Shown here one piece after another: positions 17,286 to 63,435 of a stretch of DNA of 63,435 nucleotides. The stretch comes from Candidatus Magasanikbacteria bacterium CG11_big_fil_rev_8_21_14_0_20_39_34 (GTDB lineage: Bacteria > Patescibacteriota > Patescibacteriia > Magasanikbacterales > UBA922): assembly GCA_002787355.1 (NCBI GenBank), contig PCWN01000008.1, positions 4 to 63,438 of the forward strand, given 5' to 3'. The translations under genes were made by a program, and so were the position numbers. A model generated the notes under the pieces. It worked only from the letters and a program-made list of their open reading frames with translations, searched no databases and was not told the origin of the DNA. Within the stretch, counting starts at the first letter, position 1. The number at the start of each line of letters is the position of its first letter.

Positions 17286-17338
17286 ATTCACGTAATTTTA
17301 GAAATAATTACGCTTTCCCCTTGATGCGCGCGCAAACA

Positions 17339-17365
17339 AAAAGTAAGCATGGGTAGCTTACTTTT
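17339..17365 (-). terminator. Hairpin, probable terminator of the 572-aa gene
   Basis: AAAAGTAAGC-atgggta-GCTTACTTTT with a T-run on the minus strand. Confidence 0.55.
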
Positions 17366-17443
17366 AAAATGTGGTATTTCTAATATGCTTTGATTAGGCG
17401 GTTTTCTTAATGTTTTTATCTAAATTTAGGTATACTATTTCGC

Positions 17444-19162
17444 CTATGTTGAAAACCCTATCCAAGTGATATCAAATTGTTCCGTGTTTAAGTAATAGCC
17501 CCCCCTACCGTTCTTGATCAAATCAATATCTGTACCAAGTATGTTCTTAACATGGGTATTTATACCTATATTACCCTTTTTATTACTTTGTATTGCGGCA
17601 TAGATTGATTTACTCAAATCATTATCCACAGTGCCTTTGTATCCAACTTGTCTAGCTAATCTTACTGCTGTTATTGAAGTAGCATCTTTCAACAGATTTA
17701 TAATATCTAATCGTCTATTTTTTGCTTGGTACAACTTAGATGGATCATTCTTTAAGTAAATGCCTTTTTGTTTATCTACCACGAGCTCTGTCTTTGCTTG
17801 CTCAGGTGAAGATTTCTTTACTTCGTTGAGATTCAAATCTATGGGTTTCTCCTGAGCACTATTTTTAAATTCGTGAGTGTGGGCATGCTCATGCTTGACC
17901 ACCTCCTGTTTTGGTTTGGTAAATTGGTTAAACCTTTCTCTATCCGCATCAGCATCTTTTTCAAATTGATGTAACCTTTCTTTTCTCAACTTATCACACC
18001 TACGTGTTATATCTCTAGTCTTGTCCAAAAAAATGACAAGCTGAGGATCTAGCGAAAATTCTTTTCGCCCAAACTTCATCCACAGCTTTTCTAAAAGACC
18101 ATATGCTGTTAGCAGACTATTTTTAACACCAAATTCTCCCCACCACATATCCATATCGTCCAAAGATCCTAAAATGGTGTCTGGCATCCACTCGGGGAGA
18201 TTTTCTTTGATTTCTTGAAGAAATTGACGTTCTAAAATTTCATCAAGATACATTTTTAACTGTATGTATTGAGTGTTTAAATCATAGTCACAGATTAAAA
18301 TGTAGTTGCCACAGACCGTACTTAATAATTCCACCAGCTGAGATAGTACAATTCTACAAAAGTAAATTGCTTGTTCGTCAGTCAACTTATCGATATCCAC
18401 CATCTCACTTTCTCTATTAACACAAATCGCAATTTTTGATAAAAGATTATCTTCCAAACTAAAAACAATCCCATCAGATCCTACCCATTTTTGTTCTTTT
18501 TTTTCGGTGCTCGGAACCTTAGCAAAAATACTATCACCCACAATCTTTACATCATCATATTTTAAATACTTTTCGTATTTTGTCATCACCTCTGATGCTT
18601 TTTCTTCATCCCCAACAAAGACTAAAGGATGTAATACTTTTTCAAGTATTTTCAAAAACATTGAAATCTCTTCTGGTTTTTTAGATGTTGAATAGTATGA
18701 AAGTACATAAAATACCACCACCCACTTTGTCGTATGCGTAAACATGCTTTCGGGTACGCCTAGTCTCGTAAATATTTGAATAATTTTATTCAACGAAAAT
18801 CGACTTCCAATTTCCTTTGCTATTAGTTCTAAAGCATCTAAATTAACAATTCCATCAACACCTAGAATTCGTTTTTTAAGTAACAAAATTCTGTCCGCCT
18901 CTATATAAAACTCAATAAGTCTATTTCCTATTTCACGATGTGTTTGCTTTTTCATTTCCTCCCAGTCGTAAACCACAACCTCAAGATCTATCAAGATTTG
19001 AATCAAATCATCGTTTCGTTCGTCAGTTGTAACAGTATAAGCATGCCCCGCCTGTACATCACCGACTATTCGCAACGCTTTTTCAAATAATTCTTTATGC
19101 TGAATTAATTGATCAGTTGTTTTGATGTGACTATATAAGTTACTTCTCCTAGAAATAGCCAT
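17444..19162 (-). CDS. Hypothetical protein with an AbiJ-NTD-like segment and a C-terminal winged-helix-like region
   Basis: FLKILEKVLHPLVF..DEEKA....KYLKYD resembles AbiJ N-terminal domains; C-terminal DLIKNGRGGYYLN wing. Family call is inference. Confidence 0.5.
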   Translation of the reverse strand: MAISRRSNLYSHIKTTDQLIQHKELFEKALRIVGDVQAGHAYTVTTDERNDDLIQILIDLEVVVYDWEEMKKQTHREIGNRLIEFYIEADRILLLKKRILGVDGIVNLDALELIAKEIGSRFSLNKIIQIFTRLGVPESMFTHTTKWVVVFYVLSYYSTSKKPEEISMFLKILEKVLHPLVFVGDEEKASEVMTKYEKYLKYDDVKIVGDSIFAKVPSTEKKEQKWVGSDGIVFSLEDNLLSKIAICVNRESEMVDIDKLTDEQAIYFCRIVLSQLVELLSTVCGNYILICDYDLNTQYIQLKMYLDEILERQFLQEIKENLPEWMPDTILGSLDDMDMWWGEFGVKNSLLTAYGLLEKLWMKFGRKEFSLDPQLVIFLDKTRDITRRCDKLRKERLHQFEKDADADRERFNQFTKPKQEVVKHEHAHTHEFKNSAQEKPIDLNLNEVKKSSPEQAKTELVVDKQKGIYLKNDPSKLYQAKNRRLDIINLLKDATSITAVRLARQVGYKGTVDNDLSKSIYAAIQSNKKGNIGINTHVKNILGTDIDLIKNGRGGYYLNTEQFDITWIGFST

Positions 19163-19229
19163 ATTTTGTCGTAATATTCATTTTAATGTATACTTATGTT
19201 AACTTATATAAACTCTTAGATCAAGAGCT

Positions 19230-42665: not shown

Positions 42666-44039
42666 GTGGTTTTTTCTTCTATTACATTCCTTTTCTTTTT
42701 CCTCCCGACTACACTGATCCTGTATTTTGTGGTCCCAAAAAAGTATAAAAATACTATTCTTTTGCTTTTAAGTCTCCTTTTTTATGCTTGGGGTGAAGGA
42801 ATCTACATTGCCTTTCTTCTTTTGAGTATAGTAGGAAATTTTTTCTGTGCAAAAAAAATTTCACAAAAGGGAAAAGTTCCTTTATTTTTTGGAGTACTTT
42901 TTAATATTCTGCTCCTTGGTGTACTCAAATACGCTTTGTTTTTTACGGAAACCCTAAATTCCGTCTTTCATCTTCATATTTCATCACCCCATATTCATCT
43001 TCCCATTGGTATTTCATTTTTCACCTTTCAGGCACTCTCCTATATTATAGATGTTTACAGAAAAAAAATTCATGTCCAAAAAAGTATAACCAAATTAGGC
43101 CTCTATATATCACTATTTCCACAACTTATAGCAGGTCCAATTGTTCGGTATAGTGATATAGAATCAGAAATTGATACCAGAACTATAAACCTGCAAAAAG
43201 TAACCGAAGGAGCACAGCGCTTTATCATAGGACTTTCAAAGAAGGTTCTTATCGCCAATACCCTAGCATCCACGGCAGATCTTATTCTTGACGGCAACAC
43301 AGATTTGCTTTCCTCCCCCATTGCCTGGCTTGGGATACTCTGTTACACCTTTCAAATATATTTTGATTTTTCAGGATATTCAGATATGGCCATAGGACTT
43401 GGAAAAATGTTTGGCTTCTCCTTTCCAGAAAATTTTCACTATCCCTACATAAGTACATCTATACGAGAGTTTTGGCAACGTTGGCACATTTCTCTTTCCT
43501 CTTGGCTCAAAGATTACCTCTATATCCCCTTGGGAGGAAATAGAAAAGGAATGTACAGAACATATGTAAACTTGATCATTGTATTTTTACTCTGTGGCCT
43601 TTGGCATGGTGCTGCATGGAACTTCATCCTCTGGGGTGGTTACTATGGCATATTTTTAGTCCTTGAACGCATAGGATTCATCCAAAATTTTCTCAAAAAG
43701 ATCCCAAAACTTTTCCTCCATATATATGCTCTTCTTGTTGTGATAATAGGTTGGGTATTTTTTCGCATAGAAAGTATCCCACAGGCATTCCTTTATATAC
43801 AACATATGTTTACCTTTTCCGAATGGAACAACTTTGCTTCGCAATTACAATATTACTTTACACCAAAATTTTCTATCCTCTTTTTATGTGCAATACTTGC
43901 CTCAACCCCAATTGCGCAACTTGTAAAAAGAAAATATAGAATGTATTTCATACAACCTATCCTTATACTCCTTTTGCTTTTATGTTCACTGGAGTTAGCG
44001 TCAGGAAGTTATAATCCATTTATTTACTTTCGATTTTAA
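42666..44039 (+). CDS. algI: MBOAT polysaccharide O-acetyltransferase (AlgI/DltB-like)
   Basis: LPIGISFFTFQ, FPQLIAGPIVRY, YFDFSGYSDMAIG, FWQRWHISLS, GLWHGA, YNPFIYFRF. Confidence 0.92.
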   Translation: MVFSSITFLFFFLPTTLILYFVVPKKYKNTILLLLSLLFYAWGEGIYIAFLLLSIVGNFFCAKKISQKGKVPLFFGVLFNILLLGVLKYALFFTETLNSVFHLHISSPHIHLPIGISFFTFQALSYIIDVYRKKIHVQKSITKLGLYISLFPQLIAGPIVRYSDIESEIDTRTINLQKVTEGAQRFIIGLSKKVLIANTLASTADLILDGNTDLLSSPIAWLGILCYTFQIYFDFSGYSDMAIGLGKMFGFSFPENFHYPYISTSIREFWQRWHISLSSWLKDYLYIPLGGNRKGMYRTYVNLIIVFLLCGLWHGAAWNFILWGGYYGIFLVLERIGFIQNFLKKIPKLFLHIYALLVVIIGWVFFRIESIPQAFLYIQHMFTFSEWNNFASQLQYYFTPKFSILFLCAILASTPIAQLVKRKYRMYFIQPILILLLLLCSLELASGSYNPFIYFRF

Positions 44040-44056
44040 GGTCCTCTATATTTCTT

Positions 44057-45130
44057 ATGAAAAAAATGGTCAGTATACTTTTCTTGGTCCTTTGCGGAGT
44101 AATAATTTTTACGCCATTTTTTTCTATGCCCTTCTTTAAAAACTCTGCTTCGGAAGAAAAACGAGAGAAGGCAACCTTTCCCTCATTCTGGCTCCGTGGC
44201 ATTGCCAGTGCCAACTATTTTCGAGAAATGGATAACTTTTTACAAGATAATTTTGGTTTGAGAGAACAAATGGTAAAAATAAATAGTTTATTCAATCTAC
44301 GTGTCTTACATACATCTTCCAATCCTTTCGTCCTCGTCGGAAAAAATGGATGGCTTTTTTATAATGCAGAAAATGCATATGAAAACTATAGTGGACAAGA
44401 CCTTTTTACAAAAGAAGAATTAGCAAAGATAACAGAAATTCTTCTCACTACAAAAGAAAAGTTAGAAAACAAAAATATTAAATTTCTTTTTGTAATTGCC
44501 CCCAACAAGCACAGTATCTACTCAGACGAACTTCAAAAAATATTTCAAAGAAAAAATACCTTCACACAAACGGATCAAGTAGATACAATTCTTGAAGAAA
44601 ATTCTATTCCCTACTTGGATCTTAGAAAGACACTCTCACAAAATGCACAAAAAATGCAACTGTATTACAAAACAGATACCCATTGGAATAATTTAGGAGC
44701 CTATCTTGCCTATAAAGAAATTTCAAAACAACTTAATTTTGCACCTTATGAATGGAGTTTTCAAATGGGAAGCAAATCCGGTGGAGACCTTTCTGCATTT
44801 CTCTCTCTTAAAGAAAATATAATGGATACTCAAATTATTGCACATCCAAAATTTGAAGCAAAAGCAAAGCTTCTTCCTACCCTTTTTGAAAACCCAAAAA
44901 AAAATCATGACCTGTACACCTTTGGAACGCAAGACACTACACAACCAAAAGCCGTTGTATTCCGAGATTCATTTAGTAATGCCCTTGTCCCCTATTTATC
45001 GGAACATTTTTCTCAAGTTTCTTATGTATGGACCTACAATGTTTTAGACTATATAATAGAAGAGGAACATCCCGATGTAGTTGTTGTAGAAATTGTAGAA
45101 AGATATCTCAATAAACTCCTTGAAGAATAA
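44057..45130 (+). CDS. AlgJ/AlgX-like SGNH O-acetyltransferase
   Basis: GKNGWLF, APNK, TDTHWN, RDSF, VERYL; adjacent to the MBOAT gene. Confidence 0.85.
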   Translation: MKKMVSILFLVLCGVIIFTPFFSMPFFKNSASEEKREKATFPSFWLRGIASANYFREMDNFLQDNFGLREQMVKINSLFNLRVLHTSSNPFVLVGKNGWLFYNAENAYENYSGQDLFTKEELAKITEILLTTKEKLENKNIKFLFVIAPNKHSIYSDELQKIFQRKNTFTQTDQVDTILEENSIPYLDLRKTLSQNAQKMQLYYKTDTHWNNLGAYLAYKEISKQLNFAPYEWSFQMGSKSGGDLSAFLSLKENIMDTQIIAHPKFEAKAKLLPTLFENPKKNHDLYTFGTQDTTQPKAVVFRDSFSNALVPYLSEHFSQVSYVWTYNVLDYIIEEEHPDVVVVEIVERYLNKLLEE

Positions 45131-45163
45131 TCTCTCAAACATCTCATTCCTAATCATTCTCTT

Positions 45164-45667
45164 ATGAAACAAAAAATTCCTATTGCTATTGTCATTCTTC
45201 TTCTTGCACTTGGATTTTTAGGATATAGAAGCTTTCATATCAAACAGTCTGAAAAACACATAGATTCCATAAAACCAGAAATAGTAAAAAGTGAAGAAGA
45301 ATGGAGAAAAATTCTTACACCAGAACAATACAATATCCTTCGAGAAAGTGGAACAGAACCTCCATTTTCAAGTCCGTTGTACCACAATGAGAAAAAAGGA
45401 ATCTATGTGACAGCAGATTGTGATGAAGAAGTATTCAGTTCAGAACAAAAGTTTGACTCCAGAACCGGCTGGCCAAGTTTTTGGGCGCCTATCAAAGAAG
45501 ATGCGGTGGTTTTGGTAGAAGATTGGAGTCTTGGTTATAAACGTGTAGAAATCCGAAGTAAGAAATGTAATAGCCATCTCGGTCACGTATTTGAGGATGG
45601 TCCAAAGCCAACTGGCCTACGATACTGTATAAATGGTACCGCACTCAAATTTATTCCAGAGGAATAA
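45164..45667 (+). CDS. msrB: Peptide-methionine (R)-S-oxide reductase with an N-terminal anchor
   Basis: GTEPPF, GWPSF, HLGHVFEDGP, RYCING. Confidence 0.95.
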   Translation: MKQKIPIAIVILLLALGFLGYRSFHIKQSEKHIDSIKPEIVKSEEEWRKILTPEQYNILRESGTEPPFSSPLYHNEKKGIYVTADCDEEVFSSEQKFDSRTGWPSFWAPIKEDAVVLVEDWSLGYKRVEIRSKKCNSHLGHVFEDGPKPTGLRYCINGTALKFIPEE

Positions 45668-45673
45668 ACCATC

Positions 45674-46822
45674 TCATGTTTTTTTTCGTGAAAAAACATA
45701 TGCTGCCAAAGCAGTTGTTATTGGTACTGCAAAAATAAGGGAAATACTTCCCACCAACATCCGTGCAATCTCTTCAATCAAAATTTCACTGTTCAGTGTA
45801 AGCCAAATAGGTTGTTGATATATGTTGAATAAAAGAAGAAGTGGAAAGGATGCACCTGTGTAGGCTAGTACCAATGTATTCACAAGTGAAATAATATGTT
45901 CTTTTCCGACTGAAAGTCCTCTTTTGTACAGTTCACCGAAAGAGAGACTGGAGTTTGCCTTATGTATTTCATCTACAGATGCCGCTTGCGCTGTAGTGAT
46001 ATCATCTAAAATTCCTAAAGTTCCAATAATGATTCCTCCCAAAAGAAGACCTTGCAAATTGATTTCTCCCTTTGGAGAAAACCTCAAATAAAACGCTTCT
46101 TCACTTCCCAAGCCAAAGAGTCTCATACTATGTACAGCAATATATGCCAAAAGCAATGAAATAAAAATTGTAACAATGGTAGAAAAAAAGGCAATATGCG
46201 TCCGTGGCTTTATGCCATGTGCAACATAAATAGAAAAACAGGCTATAGCCATAGTACCTACAAAACTAATCAAGAAAGGATTCGAACCGGAGATAATTTT
46301 GGGCACAATGAAATACATGATTACAAAAAAACTTAATCCCAAACCGATAAAAGCATGCATACCATGTTTTCCAGCAAAAATAAGTGCTACAAATATAAAG
46401 AAAAGAAAAAACCAAAGAAGTGCATGCAATCTATACACATCAGCGATATAATATGTTTCTTGTGTATCAAACTCATTCAAAGACCTCCCTACCACAACCT
46501 TCTCTCCCATTTTTAAACCTAATTGATCCTCCGCGTTAGAACGAGACTCATACAATAAATTCAATTGTTTTCCCTTAAGATCACCATCAATAAGCTCCAC
46601 TTTAACATTCTGAAAAAATGATTTCGTCCCAAATTCTTCCTTGATCTCCCCTTTTTGAACTTCAACTACTTTTGCCTTAAAGAAAACATCTGCAATGGGA
46701 GTAGAAACGTCTGGGCCATTCCCTAAAACAACTGTAGAGGTTGTCACTTCCTCTTGACTCGTAAATACTATCCCCGGGAAAAGAAAAAGACTCAGTACAG
46801 CATAAATAATAAATTTTTTCAT
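45674..46822 (-). CDS. YibE/F-family membrane protein
   Basis: GIIIGTLGILDDIT, VNTLVLAYTGAS, PITTALA. Confidence 0.9.
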   Translation of the reverse strand: MKKFIIYAVLSLFLFPGIVFTSQEEVTTSTVVLGNGPDVSTPIADVFFKAKVVEVQKGEIKEEFGTKSFFQNVKVELIDGDLKGKQLNLLYESRSNAEDQLGLKMGEKVVVGRSLNEFDTQETYYIADVYRLHALLWFFLFFIFVALIFAGKHGMHAFIGLGLSFFVIMYFIVPKIISGSNPFLISFVGTMAIACFSIYVAHGIKPRTHIAFFSTIVTIFISLLLAYIAVHSMRLFGLGSEEAFYLRFSPKGEINLQGLLLGGIIIGTLGILDDITTAQAASVDEIHKANSSLSFGELYKRGLSVGKEHIISLVNTLVLAYTGASFPLLLLFNIYQQPIWLTLNSEILIEEIARMLVGSISLIFAVPITTALAAYVFSRKKT

Positions 46823-46884
46823 ACATTCTTTGAAATTTTGTATAATGACAATAGTATAGCGTTTTAGCTTCCTTCTTTCAACTC

Positions 46885-46913
46885 TTGACCAAAAAAGGGA
46901 AATTTACTATAAT
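46885..46913 (+). promoter_or_regulatory. Sigma70 promoter of tRNA-Thr
   Basis: TTGACC, 17 bp, TATAAT. Confidence 0.8.
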
Positions 46914-46928
46914 AAAGCACGTTAATAA

Positions 46929-47001
46929 GCCGTCATAGCTCAGTTGGTAGAGCGTATCCATGGTAAGGATAAGGTCCCCAGTTCAATCCTGGGTGACGGC
47001 T
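46929..47001 (+). tRNA. trnT: tRNA-Thr (anticodon GGT), CCA not encoded
   Basis: Acceptor GCCGTCA/TGACGGC, D-arm GCTCAGTTGGTAGAGC, anticodon arm TATCC-ATGGTAA-GGATA, T-arm CCCAG-TTCAATC-CTGGG. Confidence 0.95.
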
Positions 47002-47090
47002 CAATATTTTCTGTAATAAAAAATCGCTGTATTAAGCGATTTTTGTTTTTGATATTGCTTTACCCTGAACCAAGGTTTGAACTTGATGTA
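46997..47090 (+). repeat. tRNA-Thr downstream unit, copy 1 (core, terminator, eroded promoter)
   Basis: CGGCTCAATATTTT...AAAAATCGCT-gtatta-AGCGATTTTTGTTTTT...AGGTTTGAACT. Confidence 0.85.
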
Positions 47091-47136
47091 CTAATTTTTA
47101 GAATTGTATTGGCACCAACATTAGTGTCAGCATATT

Positions 47137-48801
47137 TTAGTAGTTCAATAGAGAATCCCCCGTATTGATCGTTAAAACTGTGTGAATGTCAGGATTAAAG
47201 TTTGGATCAATCGTTTTAAGTCTATTCAATATTGCAATTCCTGAAGCACCACTTGGTTCAGCATCAATATTATTTTTTTTCAATTCATTCATTGCACTAC
47301 AAATTTCTTCATCAGTAACATGATAAACAGTATATTGAGTACGATGTCTTCCTTTTTTATCAATTGGTTCATGTCGTGTTAAAGCCTGCCCTTTGACGAA
47401 TAACTCTTCTGTGTCTACCCATATTGGTCCATAGAGCATTACTGCAATAGTATTTGGGTCACCACTACTCACTGGAATAACTTTTGTTTTCAGCTTATGT
47501 TCATCTACATAATCAATCACTTCATTACACAAGATCCCTGCTCCAAAGGGCACAATAACATAGTCTGGGGAAAAACGAAGTTGTTGTTCAATGGCTTCAA
47601 TAATAATATTAACATAGGCTGGACGATTTAACCCTTCTGTAATATCTACAAATTCACCAATTACTTTTTTATGTTTTTTTGCTAAATTTTCAATGTCTTT
47701 GGATCGGTAAATTTTCTTGCTAAGATCAATGGGAACAATTTCACAGGTGTCATGTAAATGGCCTATCACTTCTTTTGCTGTTACGACGGAACTACTTGTA
47801 TCTGGACCAAAAGTTTTCTTTTCGAGTTTTGGAGGGATAAATGCCACAGCCCGTGAAACTTCATATCCAGCCATTTCATTTAGAAGCGATACATAATATC
47901 CCATTGATCTTGCTGTATTTCCATAGGAAATTGATCCAAATGTAATAGGCTTTGGAATTTTTCCTTGTCTAATTTCTTCCAACAGAGGACGAATCATTTC
48001 ATATGCGAGCCTGTCTTTGAAGGTGTGCGTTGGATTTTTACTTTCATCTTTGATCAAAAGATTTTTTATACCATAAATTGTCTCTCTTGGTACGATAATG
48101 GGAGTATTCCCAGGTTTTACGACTTTTTCAGCTTGCTGAAGTTCATAGATGAGAGCTGCATCCCAAGTAGAAAGAAAAAACTCTTGATATCTTTCACAAA
48201 TTACTCCTGATTTTGTTTGAATAGCAATTGGGTGTTTTCCCCAAACCAATGTAATAACCCTATCTTTCAAGATTATCATACCCGTGGGTACATCTTTGTC
48301 TGTAAATCTGAATTTTAGTGTCTGTAAACTCAGATTCTGGTAGGTCTTTTCAATGACATCTTTTACCGATATTGACGCAATAGAACGATCATCCACACCA
48401 CGTTTGCCAATAGAATGATGAAAATCAAATAAAAATTGTCCAAGTTCTGAATCGTAGTACTCATTTTTAAAAGCAAATGACCAATAAAAATCATTGGCCT
48501 CAAGTGAACTTTCAATTTCCTTAAACATTGTACGAAAAGAACTGTGACCACTAAAAACAGTAACGAGTTTACTTCCTGCACTATCTAATATCTCGTCCTT
48601 TCTTTTAATTGAATAATACACACCTCGTCCTTGACCATGACGATAAACTAGACCAAGACTAAGTAGCTTTTGGAGAATCTGCTTGGCGGTAGGACGCGGC
48701 AAGCTTAATCTTTTTGAAATTTCTGCTACAGTGCCATTATCCTGAGTTTCTAGCAATTTCAAGACATTCTGTTGGTTAAGGGAAAATACATGATTATGCA
48801 T
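47137..48801 (-). CDS. TrmB-like regulator fused to a fold-type II PLP enzyme (threonine/cysteine synthase-like)
   Basis: N-terminal wHTH and TrmB middle domain; PGNTPI, KDESKNPTHTFKDR (Schiff-base Lys), SYGNT, VPFGAG, AEPSGASG. Confidence 0.8.
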   Translation of the reverse strand: MHNHVFSLNQQNVLKLLETQDNGTVAEISKRLSLPRPTAKQILQKLLSLGLVYRHGQGRGVYYSIKRKDEILDSAGSKLVTVFSGHSSFRTMFKEIESSLEANDFYWSFAFKNEYYDSELGQFLFDFHHSIGKRGVDDRSIASISVKDVIEKTYQNLSLQTLKFRFTDKDVPTGMIILKDRVITLVWGKHPIAIQTKSGVICERYQEFFLSTWDAALIYELQQAEKVVKPGNTPIIVPRETIYGIKNLLIKDESKNPTHTFKDRLAYEMIRPLLEEIRQGKIPKPITFGSISYGNTARSMGYYVSLLNEMAGYEVSRAVAFIPPKLEKKTFGPDTSSSVVTAKEVIGHLHDTCEIVPIDLSKKIYRSKDIENLAKKHKKVIGEFVDITEGLNRPAYVNIIIEAIEQQLRFSPDYVIVPFGAGILCNEVIDYVDEHKLKTKVIPVSSGDPNTIAVMLYGPIWVDTEELFVKGQALTRHEPIDKKGRHRTQYTVYHVTDEEICSAMNELKKNNIDAEPSGASGIAILNRLKTIDPNFNPDIHTVLTINTGDSLLNY

Positions 48802-48833
48802 ATAAAATATCTGTTTATATACGATTATATCCA

Positions 48834-48862
48834 ATTATATACACTTATACCGATTTTGTCAA
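48834..48862 (-). promoter_or_regulatory. Consensus sigma70 promoter of the cassette 1 gene
   Basis: TTGACA, 17 bp, TATAAT on the minus strand. Confidence 0.85.
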
Positions 48863-48930
48863 GACCTTAGATGAACTTATGAACATAATGAACTTTCCAG
48901 AAGTGGTAATAAGCTACTAAATCCCCTATT

Positions 48931-49065
48931 CCCAGTTCTAACATCCTCCGTTACTCGGCTCAATATTTTTGAGAAAAAAAATCGCTGTAATAAGCGGTTT
49001 TTGTTTTTTGCATTGTTGTACCGTTTACCGAGGTTTGAACTGATTCATTATTTTGATATACTCTA
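48931..49065 (+). repeat. attR-like site 1: EDVRT-coding arm plus tRNA-Thr downstream unit, copy 2
   Basis: CCCAGTTCTAACATCCTCCGTTACT-CGGCTCAATATTTT, terminator, TTGAAC-16-TATACT with TGn. Minus strand reads SRVTEDVRT. Confidence 0.85.
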
Positions 49066-49084
49066 TTACAAATAACCTATACCT

Positions 49085-49780
49085 ATGAACGACACCTTTA
49101 CTATTGAGAAAATGGGGAAATTTCAAGTGGTGCGTGATGATCTCTACCAGGGAGGCACGAAGAGACGAGCTTTCAAAAAACTCATAAGCACTATACAAGA
49201 AGAAGAACTTGTATATGCTTGTGACTACTATGGACATGCTGCCTACGCCATTGCTCTTACTGCACAAGAAGTAAATAAGAAGGTCACCCTTTTTTACCTG
49301 TCACCCAAAAAAGACACCGATATTTTTCAAAAGACAGTAGAAATGCCAAATGTGACCTACCATATCGTTGCAGACGCAGATACGCAAATCGAAGCGAGCA
49401 AAACTGCCATGGAATATGCCAAGCAGCATAATGCCCTTTTTTTACCAATAGGTCTTGACTTTCCTGCATTTGAATCAAAACTTACCGAAGTCGTTAAAGA
49501 AGCAAACATTCATGCCCCTGAAATTTGGTGCATGGGAGGATCTGGGACACTAAGTCGAGCACTCAAAAATGCTTATCCAGAAACACCCGTACATGTTGTA
49601 AGCGTTGGCACCGCGAACTTTTTTGGTGGTGGTAATACCGTGTATAATGCTCCTGAAAATCTGGATGAAGAAGCACAAAACAAACCTCCCTATCCATCCA
49701 GCGCGCACTATGATGCAAAAACCTGGCAGTTTGTTGAAAAACATGCAAAAAATGGAGCTTGTATTTGGAATGTAGCGTAA
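49085..49780 (+). CDS. Compact fold-type II PLP-dependent enzyme (ACC deaminase/D-cysteine desulfhydrase-like)
   Basis: VRDDLYQGGTKRR, WCMGGSGTLSRAL, YDAKTW. Confidence 0.7.
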   Translation: MNDTFTIEKMGKFQVVRDDLYQGGTKRRAFKKLISTIQEEELVYACDYYGHAAYAIALTAQEVNKKVTLFYLSPKKDTDIFQKTVEMPNVTYHIVADADTQIEASKTAMEYAKQHNALFLPIGLDFPAFESKLTEVVKEANIHAPEIWCMGGSGTLSRALKNAYPETPVHVVSVGTANFFGGGNTVYNAPENLDEEAQNKPPYPSSAHYDAKTWQFVEKHAKNGACIWNVA

Positions 49781-49984
49781 ACTTACCAACCAATATAGTT
49801 GATCATTTACTCAAAACTGTTTTTTATGCTACTCGGACTCAGACGCGGGACCGTACAACTGAATTAATACTCCGACCAATGGCCGAAGTTTTTTAAAATT
49901 GAATGAAAAAAAATGAGATAAAAAAAGTGCTCGGAGATCAAACCTCAGACATTGAGCACATAGAATCTACTACTCTCAGGAAGA

Positions 49985-50710
49985 CTATTCTTTGTTGGAT
50001 CTAATGTAATCCTTAAGTTGTTTCACTTGTTCACCAACAAAGTCTGGTAGTTGATCCAGCCTGCCACCACCTTCAACATGCCGTACGATTTCTTGATGAA
50101 CCCTACGCGCCATATCATGGGCATCTGGGTCTGTTTGAGGATCGATTGACAAAGGATATACAACCTCAGCTCCCTGATCCTGATAACTCCTCAATAGCGC
50201 TGCATCATTTTCATTCGTAGCTAAAAATGATTTTTCTCCTTCAGAAAAATTCGAATGAACTACAATTCTATCTGCTCTTTGAATTTCTGGCGGAATACTT
50301 ACAAGAACATCATATTCATCAACATCAAGAACGCTCTCCATTTTGTCACCTAGCCTACGACCTGGCTTTTTATAGTCAGGTACTCCTTCCGTAGTAATAC
50401 GTATACCTTCTCCTCCAATATCAGAACCGCGAACCACGTACGTTGACACCACATCAACAAAAAATAATTCTCCTTTAGAATTCCTAACAAATCCTCTAAA
50501 ATCGCCAGTGCTGGACTGGGGAATAAGATCGCCATCTTCACGATCTCTTCTGAAGATATCGTGGTATTCTTCCTCTGTAACAACCGGAAATCCGTGTCTA
50601 GTTTCTCTTTGTACGAACTCTGTACCTTGTCCTGACCCATGCTCTAAACATGGAGATGCCTTTCCACATTGGGAACAATGACCAGTTTCGTGTGCTTTAC
50701 CTTCTTTCAT
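49985..50710 (-). CDS. Hypothetical protein with an N-terminal CxxC-x5-CxxH motif
   Basis: HCSQCGKASPCLEH; has its own consensus promoter. Confidence 0.65.
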   Translation of the reverse strand: MKEGKAHETGHCSQCGKASPCLEHGSGQGTEFVQRETRHGFPVVTEEEYHDIFRRDREDGDLIPQSSTGDFRGFVRNSKGELFFVDVVSTYVVRGSDIGGEGIRITTEGVPDYKKPGRRLGDKMESVLDVDEYDVLVSIPPEIQRADRIVVHSNFSEGEKSFLATNENDAALLRSYQDQGAEVVYPLSIDPQTDPDAHDMARRVHQEIVRHVEGGGRLDQLPDFVGEQVKQLKDYIRSNKE

Positions 50711-50740
50711 ACTATTACATTTAAAATTAACATCAATTTT

Positions 50741-50769
50741 ATTATATATCTGGACTTTTTTTTTGTCAA
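50741..50769 (-). promoter_or_regulatory. Consensus sigma70 promoter
   Basis: TTGACA, 17 bp, TATAAT on the minus strand. Confidence 0.85.
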
Positions 50770-50799
50770 AAAATATCTTTCCTTAGACACCTCCACAAT

Positions 50800-50935
50800 T
50801 CCAAATTCTGACATATTCATCACCCGAATCCTTTTTTCAAATTAAAAAATCGCTGCAATAAGCGATTTTTGTTTTTAGCTTATTGTATCCTTGACCCAAA
50901 TTTGAACTGATTCATTATTTTGCTATACTCTACTA
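50800..50935 (+). repeat. attR-like site 2 (degenerate) plus tRNA-Thr downstream unit, copy 3
   Basis: AATTCTGACATATTCATCACCCGAAT, then AAAAATCGCT-gcaata-AGCGATTTTTGTTTTT and TTTGAACTGATTCATTATTTTGCTATACT. Minus strand reads EYVRI. Confidence 0.75.
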
Positions 50936-50952
50936 AAACATAATATTCTTCT

Positions 50953-51558
50953 ATGGAAGCAAAACGAATAACAATCTTTGGTGATAGTATCACCTGGGGG
51001 AAAGCCGATAATGAATTTGGAGGTTGGGTGAACCGGTTGAGGTGTTATTGTGATGAAATGTACAACTACGATGTAGAAATTTACAATGTTGGGGTATCTG
51101 GAGATACGACTGACGATATCCTTCAAAGGTTTGATGGAGAAGCTACAGCAAGAAATAGAAAACCACAACGTTTTGTATTTGCTATTGGAATAAATGATTC
51201 GTACTATGATAATACTGAAGAAAATCCAAAGGTCCCCATAAAACGTTTTGAAAAGAATCTACAAAAAATCATAGCAAAAGCAAAAAATTTCTCCAAAAAT
51301 ATAGTATTCATTGGCGCAACGAATGTTGATGAGTCTCAAATGCCACGAAAGGGAGTAAAAATTTGGAAAAATGATAGAATTCAAAAATACAATGAAATAA
51401 TTAAAAAAGTCTGCGATGAGAATGGTATTCCATTTTTGGAACTCTTTGGCATTATTGATCATGCTGAGCTTCCAGACGGACTGCATCCAAACGCAAAAGG
51501 CCATGAAAAAATGTTTCAAAAGATAAAAGGCTTTTTACAAAAAGAAAAAATTATTTAA
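50953..51558 (+). CDS. SGNH/GDSL hydrolase
   Basis: FGDSITWG, NVGVSGD, IGIND, DGLHPN. Confidence 0.92.
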   Translation: MEAKRITIFGDSITWGKADNEFGGWVNRLRCYCDEMYNYDVEIYNVGVSGDTTDDILQRFDGEATARNRKPQRFVFAIGINDSYYDNTEENPKVPIKRFEKNLQKIIAKAKNFSKNIVFIGATNVDESQMPRKGVKIWKNDRIQKYNEIIKKVCDENGIPFLELFGIIDHAELPDGLHPNAKGHEKMFQKIKGFLQKEKII

Positions 51559-51561
51559 AAT

Positions 51562-52008
51562 ATGAAAATAGCTATCTGTGGAAGTATCCAATTTACCCAC
51601 AAAATGAAAGAAATAGCAGATGAATTGATCAAGCTAGGTCATGAAATTGAATTACCGCTTACCTCCCAGCGCATATTGAGTGGTCAAATTTCTATGGAAG
51701 AGTTTGAACAGGAAAGTGAGAAAAAAGAGAGAAAAATACAAGATGATGTAATCAAACGATATTACAATATCATACATGATAGTGATGCCGTACTTATAGT
51801 GAATCCTGAAAAGAAAAAAACTCCCAACTATATTGGTGGAAATACGTTTCTCGAAATGGGGTTTGCTCACGTCCTTGGGAAACATATTTATATCCTCAAC
51901 GATATTCCAACTATGTTGTATACAGATGAAATACAGGCTATGAAACCCATAATTTTAGAAGGGAACCTCTCTAAAATACAACACTCGGGTCAACCTATTG
52001 CCAAATAA
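51562..52008 (+). CDS. Nucleoside 2-deoxyribosyltransferase-like protein
   Basis: MKIAICGS, SDAVLIVN, YIGGNTFLEMGFA. Confidence 0.65.
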   Translation: MKIAICGSIQFTHKMKEIADELIKLGHEIELPLTSQRILSGQISMEEFEQESEKKERKIQDDVIKRYYNIIHDSDAVLIVNPEKKKTPNYIGGNTFLEMGFAHVLGKHIYILNDIPTMLYTDEIQAMKPIILEGNLSKIQHSGQPIAK

Positions 52009-52049
52009 AATCATCCTCTGTAATATATGTCCATAAAACATATATACCT

Positions 52050-53054
52050 ATGAAACCACATATTCTTCTTATCTTTGCAGGAGGAACCATTGGTATGGTC
52101 CCCAATAAAGATACCGGTGCCCTCCAGCCCGCGGAGTCTGCCTTGGAACTTATGAAACAAATCCCAGAACTTGAGGAAATTGCCACACTTGATATTGAAG
52201 TGGTTGCAAATATTGATAGTTCCAATATGACACCGGAGCACTGGGTGAAAATTTCACATACCATCAATGACAACTATTCAAAATATGATGGGTTTGTCGT
52301 AGCTCAAGGAAGTGACACTATGGCATACACGGCAAGTGCCCTTTCTTTTGCCCTCCAAGGACTTGGAAAACCCGTTATATTTACCGGATCACTTATTCCT
52401 CTGCAAAAAGCAGGATCGGATGCAAGAAACAATCTAGTTTATGCCTGCATGACGGCGGCTCTTGATTTAGCAGAAGTCTGTATTGTGCTTTCCCACACCA
52501 TTTTGCGTGGAAACCGAGCAAAAAAACATCATGAGTCATTTGTGGCAGCCTTTCACTCCCCTAACTTTCCCAACTTAGGAGAATTAGGACGGCCTATTAC
52601 TCTTCATAGTTGGCGTAACAAAAGAAATAATAGTTCCCCACTCACACTGCACGCAGATTTTGATGAAAATATTGCCGTCATCCGACTCTTTCCAGGATTT
52701 CCGCCAAAAATTATTGATTCTATTGTGGCACAAGGAACCCATGCACTTATCATAGAGGGATTTGGTCCAGGGAATGTCCCATTTCTTAATACCTCTATTA
52801 TCCCCTCTATCCAAAAGGCTATTTCACATGGGATTCCCGTCATCATAAGTAACCAAATGGAGGAAGGAACTACCAATCTCCATGCCTATGAAGCAGGTCT
52901 AGAAGCTCAAAAAGCGGGTGCTATCTCTTCTGGTGACATGACTATTGAGGCCACTATAACCAAAACCATGTGGGCATTGGCAAATAGTGATAAAAGTATT
53001 AAATCTATAAAAGCTATTCTTGAAAAGGATATATCTGGAGAGTTAAGCGAATAA
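52050..53054 (+). CDS. ansA: Type I (cytoplasmic) L-asparaginase
   Basis: AGGTIGM, NIDSSN, QGSDTMAY, TGSLIP, SDARNN, DMTIEA. Confidence 0.9.
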   Translation: MKPHILLIFAGGTIGMVPNKDTGALQPAESALELMKQIPELEEIATLDIEVVANIDSSNMTPEHWVKISHTINDNYSKYDGFVVAQGSDTMAYTASALSFALQGLGKPVIFTGSLIPLQKAGSDARNNLVYACMTAALDLAEVCIVLSHTILRGNRAKKHHESFVAAFHSPNFPNLGELGRPITLHSWRNKRNNSSPLTLHADFDENIAVIRLFPGFPPKIIDSIVAQGTHALIIEGFGPGNVPFLNTSIIPSIQKAISHGIPVIISNQMEEGTTNLHAYEAGLEAQKAGAISSGDMTIEATITKTMWALANSDKSIKSIKAILEKDISGELSE

Positions 53055-53073
53055 TTCAACAGAAAAATAAAAT

Positions 53074-54339
53074 ATGTCCTTTAACCTTGGACAACTCCCC
53101 TTTTATACTCCAAAGCAAGTATATGCGCATCCTTTGCTTAATTTTGAAATAGAAAAAACCCCGGTAGATACATGGATTGAAAAACATATCTATGAAAATA
53201 GCCACCACATCAAAGAAATAGTTTTCTCAATTGACCATATCTCATCTAAGGTTATACCTTGGTGCGTAAAATATGAAATTGGCAATATTGTTATTCATGA
53301 ACATGAAAACCCAATTGCCCATCTCTGTGTTACTCCATGTGGAGGTATCCATCTAACGATTCTTCCTGACTGTTATTCAAACGATAGAGAAAAAAAACTT
53401 ATAGAGAAAATTCAACCCACAACATTAAGCATTGCACAACCAACCAGAGAACTTTGGGAGAACCTTCAGCAACAAGATTACCTCCTTCGCACAGAAATGG
53501 TGCGTTGGTATGCAAAAGTTGGATCTGCACATAACCCATGGGAATATTTGCCGTCCAAACGGGCAAAAAAAGTTCGCTATTACGTTAAAAAATCAGAAGG
53601 GTATCACTTTGAAGTCCTTCCCATGACTGTAGAAAATTTTTCTGCCTGGCTTCCCATATATGAGCAAGAAGTTGCAGAACGACCAAATGGTTTTTCTATT
53701 TTTTATCCAAAAATTTTTCTTTCTGCCAATAAGCTCAAAGATATGAAAATGATTCATATTTTTGATAATGAAAAACAACTTGTTGGTGGCGCCGTGGTAA
53801 ATACCTGGGGAGGGTTTGGAGACATTGGTACACAACCAAGAAAATATACATCTTTTCTTCTCCAAGCATATAAAAAAGACTATAGAAATAGTGCCCTTGC
53901 GTACCGTCTTGCAGAAGAAGTTATGTCTATTGCCAGAAGCTATGGGGATAAAATTTACGGCTATGGTGGAGATTTTAATTTTTGGGGTGAAACCATTCAA
54001 CCGGGTCTTCTATCTCACAAATCAATCTTAGGGATGCTCCCACTTCCTGAGTTACAAGTAGAAGCGTTCCGAATTATTAATCAAAAAATGCTTCAATCAT
54101 ATTCAAAACAAGGCCTCTATATTCTTGCCCTCCAGGAGAACCATAGCCTCGTCCAAAAATATTTCAAACAAAGAGAAACAGATCTTGTATATAATTTTGC
54201 TACACTCTATGCACCTCCATATAAAGACCTGGATATTTTAGATGAAGTCCCAAAAATTTGGACCGCATATCATTTTGACCAAAAGCATTCCTCCTCTATC
54301 TCTCTTCCGCAACACATTCAATGTATTGAAATAAATTAA
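53074..54339 (+). CDS. Hypothetical protein, possibly GNAT/FemAB-like
   Basis: EYLPSKRAKKVRYY; QLVGGAVV; YGYGGD.N......GLLSHK..LG pattern. Confidence 0.5.
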   Translation: MSFNLGQLPFYTPKQVYAHPLLNFEIEKTPVDTWIEKHIYENSHHIKEIVFSIDHISSKVIPWCVKYEIGNIVIHEHENPIAHLCVTPCGGIHLTILPDCYSNDREKKLIEKIQPTTLSIAQPTRELWENLQQQDYLLRTEMVRWYAKVGSAHNPWEYLPSKRAKKVRYYVKKSEGYHFEVLPMTVENFSAWLPIYEQEVAERPNGFSIFYPKIFLSANKLKDMKMIHIFDNEKQLVGGAVVNTWGGFGDIGTQPRKYTSFLLQAYKKDYRNSALAYRLAEEVMSIARSYGDKIYGYGGDFNFWGETIQPGLLSHKSILGMLPLPELQVEAFRIINQKMLQSYSKQGLYILALQENHSLVQKYFKQRETDLVYNFATLYAPPYKDLDILDEVPKIWTAYHFDQKHSSSISLPQHIQCIEIN

Positions 54340-54346
54340 AATACCC

Positions 54347-55132
54347 ATGAAAAATACACCTTCCAAAAATACAGTTTTCTTCCCGGACACACAAGGAAAT
54401 TCTCTATGCGCTATTTTATCAGAACCAAAAGAAAATGAGCTCTCCCCCATTGTCATTCTTTGTCACGGATTTACCACATCAAAAGATTCCACCAAAAATC
54501 AAACTTTTGAAAAACTATTTAATGCATGCAATATCGCCACCATCCGAATTGATTTTTTTGGCCATGGAGAAAGTGATGGGAATTTTGAAGAAATTACACT
54601 CTCCAAGGCAAAAGATGATATTTTAAGTACCATACAAGATCTTACAAAAATAGGATATACAAAAATTGGGTTAGTTGGTTCCAGCTTTGGTGGAATGTCA
54701 AGTATACTTGCTTGCGCACAAACAGATGCGCTTTGCTGTCTTGCACTCACTTCCCCGGTATCAAACTATCATGATAAACATCTTCAAGATTATACAAAAC
54801 AAGAATTACTGGATTGGAAAAACAAAGGATATATCATTTATGAAAATGGAAAGGGTGAAAAAATGAGGCTGAACTATACTTTTTTTCTTGATGCCATTAT
54901 TAATGATGGATATGTAAGTGCAAAGGATATAAAAGTCCCTACATTAATTGTACATGGAGAAAAAGATACGGTTGTCCCTATAGAACAAAGCAGAAAACTC
55001 GTTACTCTCTTGCAAGCAGGAAAACTCATAGAAGTTTCTGGTGAAGGACACAAATACAAAACTCCAGAAAATTTTGAAAAAATGATTGATCTTATTTTTC
55101 AATTTACGAAAGAAAGGTTACTTAACCTCTAG
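54347..55132 (+). CDS. Alpha/beta hydrolase
   Basis: CHGF, DFFGHGESDG, GSSFGG nucleophile elbow, HGEKD, GH. Confidence 0.92.
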   Translation: MKNTPSKNTVFFPDTQGNSLCAILSEPKENELSPIVILCHGFTTSKDSTKNQTFEKLFNACNIATIRIDFFGHGESDGNFEEITLSKAKDDILSTIQDLTKIGYTKIGLVGSSFGGMSSILACAQTDALCCLALTSPVSNYHDKHLQDYTKQELLDWKNKGYIIYENGKGEKMRLNYTFFLDAIINDGYVSAKDIKVPTLIVHGEKDTVVPIEQSRKLVTLLQAGKLIEVSGEGHKYKTPENFEKMIDLIFQFTKERLLNL

Positions 55133-55142
55133 AATTACATGT

Positions 55143-56075
55143 ATGGAAAAAATAGAAATTAAGTCTTCTTCTATCCATGGAAAAGGTATTTTTGCAAAAG
55201 ACAAAATAAAAAAGGGGGAAACGATATTCCATGTACGAGGAGCTACCATTAAATATCCCTTTGTTCCTGACTGGCGAATTGGGCAAGACTGGCTCAACAT
55301 TGGTCCCAATACATGGAAAATTGCTTATCGTAATAACCCATGGCCATATATCAACCACTCTTGTGAACCCAATGCAGGACTATTTGGAAAAACCAAAGTT
55401 GTAGCGATGCACCCTATTGATATTGGAAGTGAAATAAATATAGATTATTCCTGTACGGAGGGGTCCACAAGCAAATGGAAAATGAAATGTAACTGTCGCA
55501 AAAAACAATGTAGAAAAATTATCCGTTCTATACAATTCCTTCCCAAAAAACTTTTTATTAAATACAAAAAATTTATTCCTTTATTTTTACAGAAAGAATA
55601 TTTGGCACAAAAGGTATACGAAGATAAAATGAACAATGGAAAAAATGCTCTTTTTGCCAAAGAAAAAATAAAAAAGGGAGAAATAGTATTCAAAGTGAAA
55701 GGTCCCATAATTCACTATCCAAAACCACCAAAATCTGAAATTGGATTCAGATGGCTGGGAATTGAAAAAAATACTTGGCTTATTCCAAAACGAGACAACC
55801 CTTGGTATGTAATGTGTCATTCTTGTGAACCTAATGTTGGATTACAAAATCGAACCAATGTCGTAGCCATGCGAACAATTTTTCCTCATCAGGAGATAAC
55901 CATTGATGACTCTATTACAGAAGCTGATTTGAACTGGAAAGTAACCTGTTCTTGTCATTCAAAAAACTGTAGGAAAGAAATACGATCTATCCAATATCTT
56001 CCTCAAAAGCTATATAAAAAATACCAACCATTTATTCCAAAATTTTTTCAAAATACCTATAAAAAAGGAATCTGA
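55143..56075 (+). CDS. Tandem SET/post-SET protein-lysine methyltransferase
   Basis: HGKGIFA, YINHSCEPN, EINIDY, CNCRKKQCR; second copy MCHSCEPN, EITIDD, CSCHSKNCR. Confidence 0.88.
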   Translation: MEKIEIKSSSIHGKGIFAKDKIKKGETIFHVRGATIKYPFVPDWRIGQDWLNIGPNTWKIAYRNNPWPYINHSCEPNAGLFGKTKVVAMHPIDIGSEINIDYSCTEGSTSKWKMKCNCRKKQCRKIIRSIQFLPKKLFIKYKKFIPLFLQKEYLAQKVYEDKMNNGKNALFAKEKIKKGEIVFKVKGPIIHYPKPPKSEIGFRWLGIEKNTWLIPKRDNPWYVMCHSCEPNVGLQNRTNVVAMRTIFPHQEITIDDSITEADLNWKVTCSCHSKNCRKEIRSIQYLPQKLYKKYQPFIPKFFQNTYKKGI

Positions 56076-61477: not shown

Positions 61478-61491
61478 AAATCTACTTTATT

Positions 61492-62340
61492 TGTCATTGA
61501 AAACCGTAGGTGAAGCAATCCACCTATGTAGACTATACTCCATATTTCTCCAGAAACCATCATCCACTCACTATGAACAATACCTACTTTGTCTATATTA
61601 TGGCAAATAGAAAGTTTGGAACCATGTACGTTGGAGTGACAAATAGTCTACACCGAAGAGTTGCAGAACATAAAACAGGATACGGATCAAAATTTGTATC
61701 TCAGTATAAATTACATCGATGCGTTTACTATGAGACCTATGGAAATATTCAAGAGGCAATAAAGCGAGAAAAGCAACTCAAAGCCGGTACACGAAAACAA
61801 AAAATAGAACTCATAGAAAAAGAGAACCTGGCTTGGAGAGATCTATGCACGTAAAAATAAATTTGGAGTTAAAGCAAATAGGTGGATCCCAACTTCGTTG
61901 GGATGACAAGAGTGTATTATTACAAAATAAACCATCTATACAATCATATTTCTCTGTCATTGCGAGATATGAAATAACCGAGGTACTCTACAATATAAAC
62001 CAATTTGAAAAATTAATACTTCTTTTGTCATTGCGAACCGCAGGTGAAGCAATCCACCCATATAAAGAATGCTCCATATTTCTCATAAGCTTTTTAAAAT
62101 TTTACCAATCAAATTAAAATATACTTCTTTTGTCATTGCGAGTGTAACGAAGCAATCCACCTATGTAAATCATACGCCATATGAGTTCCAAGCATTCATC
62201 CTAATATCCAAACTACAATCAAATAAGTAGATTGCCACGCCGTATACTCGGCTCGCAATGACAGAGAGGTGCCTGGCAGATAAAAAATATACAAACTTCA
62301 CTTGTGTCATTGCGAGTGTACGAAGCAGTCCACCTATGCA
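61492..62340. repeat. Palindromic repeat family (GTCATTGCGA...GAAGCAATC and its inverse)
   Basis: Left halves at 61492, 61955 (partial), 62026, 62131, 62305; right halves at 61878-61908 and 62227-62263. Confidence 0.85.
61573..61854 (+). CDS. Small GIY-YIG nuclease (UPF0213/YhbQ-like)
   Basis: YFVYIMAN...MYVGVTNSLHRRVAEHK...AIKREKQLK. Confidence 0.92.
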   Translation: MNNTYFVYIMANRKFGTMYVGVTNSLHRRVAEHKTGYGSKFVSQYKLHRCVYYETYGNIQEAIKREKQLKAGTRKQKIELIEKENLAWRDLCT

Positions 62341-62375
62341 GAATATACTCCCAGTTTTTTATAAAAATTCCATAA

Positions 62376-62413
62376 AATAAAAAATACCGACTGAAATCGG
62401 TATTTTTTATTTA
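62376..62413. terminator. AT-rich bidirectional terminator
   Basis: AAATAAAAAATACCGA-ctgaaa-TCGGTATTTTTTATTT. Confidence 0.8.
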
Positions 62414-62551
62414 TCTCTACATACCAGTGTAATGCACTGATATTCACAGATTGATTTGCCCAGGCGTACGATGGGTATGCACGCCTTGGGGCTTGGGGGG
62501 TGTCACGTCGCGGGAAACGACGTGACGAAAGGTGGGGGGAGGACTACTCGG

Positions 62552-63435
<884 letters not shown>

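Follow-up and report, generated by a model that had tools for sequence, protein, structure and literature searches.

Repeated units and cassettes behind tRNA-Thr(GGT)

The window analysed here is a stretch of 63,435 nt (contig C11) from the 1.18-Mb, 99%-complete genome of Candidatus Magasanikbacteria bacterium CG11_big_fil_rev_8_21_14_0_20_39_34 (G000), a tiny bacterium of groundwater, and the element in question is an array of repeated units and small gene cassettes that starts at its tRNA-Thr(GGT) gene (46929-47002, plus strand; ARAGORN). A unit of about 90-110 bp, which an earlier sequence-only reading had placed three times behind this tRNA, is present in three direct copies and is unique to the locus genome-wide. 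Repeat finding delimits the copies at 47008-47083, 48966-49041 and 50834-50909 (direct repeat family D1), with spacings of 1958 and 1868 nt; copies 2 and 3 are 80% and 66% identical to copy 1. A search of the whole genome with a 145-nt query gave 25 matches at E ≤ 10, and the strong ones among them are the three copies (E values of 2e-71, 5e-25 and 1e-18), so that the unit of roughly 100 nt is confined to the tRNA-Thr locus; the next best match spans 24 nt with an E value of 0.003. Each unit contains a terminator hairpin with a 10-bp stem, which is the sole hairpin found in it, and a promoter of the form TTGAAC-16-TATACT is present in units 2 and 3.

Copy 1 includes the end of the tRNA gene itself. 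The last 22 nt of the tRNA (46981-47002, from the T-loop GTTC to C74) have the appearance of the B arm and core of an unoccupied attachment site (attB) for a large serine recombinase (LSR). The adjoining B' arm (47003-47104, plus strand), which is B'-like and not P'-like, comprises a terminator hairpin (47019-47044) and a decayed promoter (47077-47104). Copy 2 carries a putative P arm and core that are intact (48933-48961, plus strand; CAGTTCTAACATCCTCCGTTACTCGGCTC) and show no mismatch to the site that ends an LSR island in a congener, G001. It is preceded by a long-form extension of the arm (48871-48932, plus strand; GAACTTATGAAC...AAATCCCC), which is 90% identical to L026 11453-11282 and recurs at the right-hand boundary of the LSR island in G001, as well as in three other units of that genome. 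The B' arm of unit 2 (48962-49062, plus strand) includes a terminator (48977-49002) and a predicted promoter (49035-49062; TTGAAC-16-TATACT with TG) ahead of a gene for a 231-aa protein. In unit 3, the putative P arm and core (50801-50830, plus strand; CCAAATTCTGACATATTCATCACCCGAATC) are eroded; they were placed from alignments and are missed at a limit of 11 ungapped mismatches in 29 positions. The B' arm of this unit (50831-50929, plus strand) retains a terminator (50845-50870) and a predicted promoter (50902-50929) ahead of a GDSL-lipase operon.

The arm of copy 2 (AGTTCTAACATCCTC, at 48934) and a one-mismatch twin at 27729, the far end of the LSR island at tRNA-Trp, are the only two matches in the genome at two or fewer mismatches. 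The number expected by chance is 0.12, and two or more matches were obtained in none of 100 shuffles. The sequence-only reading had likened the arms of both distal copies to that of the tRNA-Trp island, which holds for copy 2, the arm of copy 3 being degenerate; its remark that the site farther from the tRNA is the more eroded agrees with the intact arm of unit 2 and the degenerate arm of unit 3.

The units bound two cassettes. Cassette 1 holds a gene of 565 aa (47137-48834, minus strand) in which Pfam recognizes an N-terminal winged helix-turn-helix (HTH) domain of the IclR/TrmB-like kind fused to a pyridoxal-phosphate-dependent (PALP) enzyme domain; the NCBIfam matches of this protein are weak, resemble threonine synthases and ammonia-lyases, and lie far below the cut-off in every case. 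Its predicted promoter (48834-48862, minus strand) is a perfect TTGACA-17-TATAAT (12/12). Cassette 2 comprises the 231-aa gene (49085-49780, plus strand), without an assigned family, and a 241-aa gene (49985-50710, minus strand), without a family match, that has a perfect TTGACA-17-TATAAT of its own (12/12; 50769-50741). Both minus-strand promoters thus point inward, as the sequence-only reading had noted. Every cassette of the window comes with a promoter-like site of its own, and two of these sites are perfect; the shared Pc layout of integrons is not found. The 231-aa protein is 91% identical in amino acids to the product of a G001 cassette gene and occurs in 3 of 240 genomes of the order; its sole homologue outside the genus (G162, L112) has no unit nearby and an in-frame TGA, and is uninformative. 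Defence genes were considered as cassette cargo and rejected, PADLOC returning HTH-level matches only. A candidate eroded site between the 231-aa and 241-aa genes (TACTCGGACTCA) was likewise discarded: its local alignment score of 21 compares with a null mean of 19 and a maximum of 28, and 23% of shuffles reach at least 21. No further eroded site appeared at up to 11 mismatches in 29 positions, either in 44000-56000 or inside the G001 island. Beyond unit 3 lies an operon (50953-54339, plus strand) encoding a GDSL hydrolase, a 148-aa protein, an asparaginase and a 421-aa protein, and only the 421-aa gene is syntenic with G001.

No recombinase domain was detected by Pfam among the window cassette proteins, in accord with the earlier description of the locus as integrase-free. 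The genome encodes one LSR and one tyrosine recombinase. No IntI-type tyrosine recombinase is present in 44000-54000, and the single genome match to PF00589 lies on contig C6. The sole LSR gene (13369-15024, minus strand) adjoins tRNA-Trp (13310-13383), its stop codon lying inside the tRNA, and the island it belongs to ends at an attR-type site (27730-27756). This island of about 14 kb (13310-27756) also carries five small open reading frames (ORFs) without a family match and an MmeI-type restriction-modification enzyme (19423-22077).

The congener locus and the grammar of the half-sites

Unit 2 was searched in 41 genomes (G000 and 40 relatives), and strong matches were found only in G000 and in G001, a member of the same genus that has eight copies on one contig. 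The tRNA-Thr(GGT) of G001 is syntenic with that of G000 on its upstream side (YibE/F upstream). Its 3' end is adjoined, on the opposite strand, by the gene for a 575-aa LSR (Pfam) that is 41% identical to the LSR at tRNA-Trp in the window. The island headed by this gene is about 10 kb long and ends in CAGTTCTAACATCCTCCGTTACTCGGCTC, the 29-mer found at 48933-48961 of the window, followed by terminator-promoter sequence. Past the island end, the array continues with seven more units spaced 0.70-1.65 kb apart, and the 421-aa gene is the conserved downstream flank of the array in both genomes. The G001 cassettes enclose unrelated genes, among them those for a transglutaminase-like protein, a 231-aa and a 239-aa protein, a racemase with a SET-domain protein, a 306-aa protein and a ClpP-like protein; no recombinase domain was detected in their products by Pfam. 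A third congener (G002) has neither a unit match nor a YibE/F match, and no inference is drawn from its fragmented genome.

Two side observations concern the G001 locus. The LSR ORF (L033 9345-11072) runs for 26 codons antisense across the entire tRNA-Thr, and the part conserved with other LSRs stops about 10 nt short of the tRNA. The cassette with the ClpP-like gene (L026 8248-9207) has a GC content of 51%, against 36-40% in its neighbours, which suggests a recent acquisition from a distant donor.

The 29-nt arm and core have no mismatches in five of the eight G001 units and in unit 2 of the window, with the first 14 nt or so of B' freely variable. Because DNA identity between orthologues in G000 and G001 is only 72-86%, the arm is either constrained or was recently delivered by one island family. 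The attL of G001, in which the tRNA is followed by a differing P' sequence, and its attR have only CGGCTC in common, and the B' arms of window copy 1 and G001 unit 4 share 85% identity across 101 nt. The G001 locus reads as attL, island and attR; copy 1 of the window looks like an empty attB. Terminator hairpins similar to those of the units (CGCTGTAATAAGCG) do occur elsewhere in related genomes, unlinked to tRNA-Thr, which would suit an array that arose without any link to recombination, by chance resemblance or by simple tandem duplication of a module made of terminator and promoter. An arm that exceeds chance by far and is tied to LSR islands, the unrelated genes between the units and the layout of the G001 locus all contradict such an origin, which we regard as extremely improbable. 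The weak unit matches retrieved from other genera proved to be generic terminator hairpins without tRNA-Thr linkage and were set aside.

Judged from its sequence, the 29-nt arm is a putative P half-site of an LSR, and unit 2 is a predicted P-core-B' hybrid of the attR type; the hybrid P-B' sites proposed in the sequence-only reading are upheld in this form. Counted from the GTTC of the T-loop up to the final base that tRNA and site have in common, the distance is 22 nt in the tRNA and 27 nt in the arm, for tRNA-Thr, tRNA-Trp, tRNA-Gly(GCC), tRNA-Gly(TCC) and tRNA-Asp alike. The best shared block gives this offset of +5 in 17 of 21 comparisons between site and tRNA, and the remaining four are ties on blocks of 3-4 nt; the tRNA-Gln windows of G035, which stand outside the 21 scored comparisons, likewise read as 22 versus 27. 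In the excerpted text of Rutherford et al. (PMC3783163), the zinc-ribbon-domain motif is placed 5 bp nearer the centre in attB than in attP, and it is the match of the 27- and 22-nt distances to this shift that leads us to read the arms as LSR half-sites. The blocks common to attL or attB and the attR-type sites are 4-11 nt long and end at tRNA position 74, which puts the crossover at about positions 71-74. Whichever tRNA is targeted, all arms contain the outer motif GTTCYAACATCCTC, and the inner part of the arm mimics the acceptor strand of the particular tRNA. An LSR is encoded beside the site at several occupied loci (tRNA-Thr of G001; G089, G091, G079 and G035; the tRNA-Trp island of the window). 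The resident tRNA-Trp LSR goes with an arm that differs from that of the tRNA-Thr array in its inner part and core.

Array distribution and proposed routes of cassette gain

A scan of the order for the outer motif GTTCYAACATCCTC gave 23 matches in 15 of 240 genomes, against two for the reversed control. LSR homologues are present in 98 of 201 genomes of the order, and sites of this type lie behind six tRNA species, often with no LSR between tRNA and site. Further arrays follow LSR islands at tRNA-Gly in G089 (five sites and four single-gene cassettes of 1.08-1.53 kb), at tRNA-Gln in G035 (five sites, with one 1218-bp cassette present as a tandem duplicate) and in G091 (two sites). The G035 duplicate (L073, oriented 9987-12423) is an exact copy of a two-gene cassette, with units that are 96.6% identical. 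In G089, a second LSR island adjoins tRNA-Met right after the tRNA-Gly array (L071 15711-17501), so that two LSR systems stand back to back.

The cassettes of the window and of the other loci are flanked by att sites and contain neither recombinase nor transfer genes. They measure 0.5-2.7 kb and are compact, with one or two intact ORFs. Cargo at the other loci includes a recurrent TrmB-like HTH protein, Fic, radical SAM, methyltransferase and inositol-phosphate synthase proteins and many ORFs without a Pfam match; among 33 cassette ORFs compared, only four pairs are related. The tRNA-Thr-type pattern had no match in the metagenome scan, and the scan of genome contigs returned the G001 contig only. 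Contigs from four public groundwater and aquifer runs are of low depth and identical to the window, show no joints, and are uninformative on circles or cassette loss; the sole run-contig rows with letters between their two sides (53283 to 46936) involve the tRNA, a place at which contigs from many different organisms accumulate. One metagenome contig of 7.9 kb (L120), in which neither tRNA nor LSR was found, has three tRNA-Gly-type sites 1.9 kb apart with near-identical B' terminators.

At seven loci (tRNA-Thr of G000, and G188, G028, G116, G011, G074 and G058) the tRNA is followed by a site within 0.55-2.1 kb with no LSR-like match between them. Each cassette might in principle be the decayed distal remnant of a full island that lost its LSR module by ordinary deletion. 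In keeping with this, four G001 units and unit 2 of the window have the long-form arm of about 75 nt that is seen at the right end of the G001 island, and the shared arm implies that those cassettes once lay at the right end of an island. A deletion, however, would leave P' beside the tRNA, and the tRNA-side junction at the LSR-free loci is B'-like (in the window, G058, G116 and G028), unlike the P' at occupied tRNAs; the G058 junction matches the B' after the site with 95% identity across 39 nt. This argues against simple island decay by deletion. No LSR fragments were found by tblastn in the cassettes of the other loci and no recombinase domain by Pfam in those of the window and G001, and the compactness and intact ORFs of the cassettes also speak against decay, which is highly improbable as their origin.

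A scan of metagenomes for the tRNA-Gly-type arm yielded eight contigs. One of these, L118, has an exact terminal overlap of 127 nt and is therefore read as a circular element of 10,215 nt. Its LSR is 58% identical to that of G001, and its attP joins a P arm to a P' that resembles the P' beside tRNA-Gly in the attL of G091. An inner P-core-B' site lies 529 bp before this attP and encloses a small minus-strand ORF with TTGACA upstream (by eye). By its arrangement of sites, L118 looks like the expected form of an island excised via an outer attR that carried a cassette along. A second contig, L117, has an attR-type and then an attP-type site in the same order. An IMG/VR contig (L086) with a P-arm-like motif beside the 3' end of its LSR gene is a weaker candidate for a free element.

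The repeats are probably attachment sites of an LSR family that integrates at the extreme 3' ends of tRNA genes, and the intervals between them integrase-free, cis-mobilizable cassettes carried by LSR islands. This reading draws on the observed identity of the sites, their P/B grammar, the cognate island of the congener, the LSR-free arrays with an attB-like proximal junction and the circular element with a nested site. Copy 1 would be an unoccupied attB, with the T arm and acceptor strand of tRNA-Thr as B arm, CGGCTC as core, and the tRNA terminator and next promoter as B'. Copy 2 would be an intact attR-type hybrid in which a P arm of 27 nt is joined through the same core to a copy of B'. 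Copy 3 would be an eroded site of the same type, in which B' may have survived because it terminates and promotes transcription. An LSR island in the tRNA could recombine its attL with whichever attR-type site lies beyond it and so be excised together with the neighbouring cassettes; after integrating elsewhere, it could leave via an inner site, so that a B'-type attB is regenerated and the cassettes are deposited. Excision would require a directionality factor. As B' brings a terminator and a promoter, each deposited gene would be both insulated and expressed.

The sequence-only reading had envisaged a more direct route, in which each cassette is a small circle with one P-core-B' site and an LSR acting in trans inserts it into the attB of the tRNA, regenerating attB in the manner of attC and attI in integrons. 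The static structure is equally compatible with this: all cassettes lie between a B' to the left and a P arm to the right, and next to the tRNA the junction is attB-like; LSR-free arrays, moreover, are common. Yet pairings other than attP with attB, or attL with attR in the presence of a directionality factor, do not recombine according to the excerpts consulted of PMC3783163, and attR-type with attB is not among the permitted ones. No circle consisting of a cassette only was found, and the sole circular molecule has an LSR and a true attP besides its nested site, which favours carriage by islands. We consider insertion in trans quite unlikely; the accretion route fits better, as every step of it uses pairings known for LSRs (PMC3783163, same excerpts).

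Several points weigh against accretion by islands. The circle comes from one contig, belongs to a tRNA-Gly-type element of another organism, and its terminal overlap could instead stem from a tandem repeat. Right half-sites, read by eye, have no clear inverted symmetry with the left ones. In G000, no tRNA-Thr-type LSR is encoded, no directionality factor was identified, and no excision or insertion event was observed; given the missing LSR, the array is probably static there unless an island of the tRNA-Thr type arrives. The accretion model also leaves unexplained how a new gene first comes to be flanked by a left-hand B' and a right-hand P arm. The sequence-only reading had asked for variation among relatives with breakpoints at the core. 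Cassette number and content do vary (two cassettes in G000 versus an LSR island and seven cassettes in G001), but in the 231-aa cassette that the two genomes share, homology ends precisely where the 231-aa gene has its stop codon and not at a site, so that other processes also remodel cassettes.

Units of 100-150 nt with 80-90% identity could, finally, serve as substrates for homologous recombination, and the sites may have been made by an LSR and the array since shaped mainly by unequal crossing-over, deletion and replacement by transformation between such units. Identities of 80-90% extend over 90-170 nt, the tandem duplicate of G035 is exact, another B' is more similar between G000 and G001 than the one beside their common 231-aa gene, and the breakpoint just described is off-site. 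Homologous recombination does not explain why an invariant 29-nt P arm and core stand beside variable B' bases, why, in units directly adjoining a stop codon, conservation sets in sharply at CCAGTTC, or why a nested site lies inside a circular LSR element. As the main force it is unlikely, and accretion by LSR islands is the reading we retain.

Two features near the end of the contig are recorded for completeness. A repeat of 34-68 nt (TGTCATTGCGA...GAAGCAATCCACC) occurs four times in 61480-62360 of the window around a small gene that resembles a GIY-YIG nuclease (by eye from its translation). In 62000-63435, the GC content rises to 53%, with tandem GTCGTC-rich repeats of 108 nt (D3, D4) at the contig end; an acquired gene for a repeat protein, or a join made during assembly, could account for this region.

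Comparison with known cassette and island systems

In the literature searched, which did not extend to supplements, no description of LSR-site cassette arrays in Patescibacteria, or the Candidate Phyla Radiation (CPR), was found. If the accretion reading is true, it would give a concrete route by which genes enter and leave the ultra-small genomes of CPR bacteria, with LSR islands shuttling single genes and their promoters between cells. One may also ask whether the order has here its counterpart of the integron, with P-core-B' sites behind at least six tRNA species as reusable docking points at which LSR islands load and unload cassettes of about 1 kb with a terminator and a promoter; we put this forward tentatively, as a possibility somewhat short of an even chance. 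In that case, the tRNA-proximal arrays would form an exchangeable common gene pool for genomes of about 1 Mb with few other mobile elements. The sites provide a natural series of matched attB, attP, attL and attR on six tRNA species that obey the 5-bp rule, which is useful for understanding and re-targeting serine integrases. The P-arm grammar alone suffices to spot integrase-free arrays that island finders keyed on integrase genes would miss.

Integrons rely on the tyrosine recombinase IntI, folded single-stranded attC sites, an attI site and a common Pc promoter. The tRNA-Thr array resembles them in its one-ended layout, with short cassettes mostly of unknown function, the newest beside the anchor and the older ones eroding. 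It differs from them in its double-strand LSR sites, in having a promoter for each cassette and in that the sole tyrosine recombinase of the genome is on another contig (C6). The integron-like character claimed in the sequence-only reading is therefore kept as an analogy only.

In staphylococcal cassette chromosomes (SCC), such as SCCmec and composite SCC, LSRs drive the element into the 3' end of a conserved gene, and direct-repeat sites allow single or joint excision; some (pseudo-SCC) lack ccr. Their target is rlmH, two Ccr proteins are needed, and the elements measure 20-60 kb. The logic of the composite islands is similar, with a tRNA in place of rlmH as the target here. The cis-mobilizable elements (CIMEs) related to ICESt1 and ICESt3, reportedly described by Pavlovic et al. 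in 2004, are said to be att-flanked and recombinase-free and to be co-excised with a neighbouring integrative element via an outer site. Their integrase is reportedly of the tyrosine type, the att cores at the fda gene are identical, and the elements range from kilobases to tens of kilobases. The logic of att-flanked, recombinase-free segments is common to both systems, and in the present arrays hybrid LSR sites with a P/B grammar bound single-gene cassettes.

The tycheposons of Prochlorococcus, in the portions of the preprint drawn on here (bioRxiv 10.1101/2020.12.28.424599), are tRNA-anchored islands of streamlined genomes that show repeated integration, with partial-tRNA repeats taken as older events. 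Some of them contain LSRs and some replication genes, for which a primase in the G079 island is the equivalent in our material. Their hallmark is a set of integration and replication modules beside a tRNA, with the cargo at the far end. An LSR and distal cargo are present in the islands here; neither Pfam nor PHROG recognizes the core proteins of those in the window and G001 (no PHROG match in seven of eight island core proteins), and the primase is confined to G079. In the same portions, 910 of 937 elements have tyrosine recombinases, and the remnants are presented as elements that have degenerated, unlike the intact hybrid sites that regularly bound 1-kb cassettes here.

The closest precedent of the tRNA-Thr array is the group of ssrA genomic islands of Dehalococcoides. 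The text of McMurdie et al. (2011; PMC3146451), as far as excerpted, describes 15 islands without integration modules that are proposed to be cis-mobilizable via accretion. The likeness extends to a reverse-strand LSR module beside attL, a target at the 3' end of a tRNA-like gene and tandem islands separated by repeats of the target 3' end. Immediately ahead of each Dehalococcoides repeat there is a conserved 15-bp motif that cannot be aligned to the target gene; in the terms used here it would be a P arm. The Dehalococcoides islands differ, in the same excerpts, in their tmRNA target, an inferred crossover in the T-loop, a second small serine recombinase and a cargo of many genes such as rdhA operons. 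The arrays of this Patescibacteria order, in turn, use six tRNA targets with a common arm that mimics the T-loop, have their crossover at the very end of the tRNA (about positions 71-74), and bound cassettes of 0.5-2.7 kb with one or two genes, each site bringing a terminator and a promoter. What is new is thus the host group, the set of targets and the position of the crossover, together with the miniature, single-gene scale, the repeated terminator-promoter and the frequency of recombinase-free arrays.

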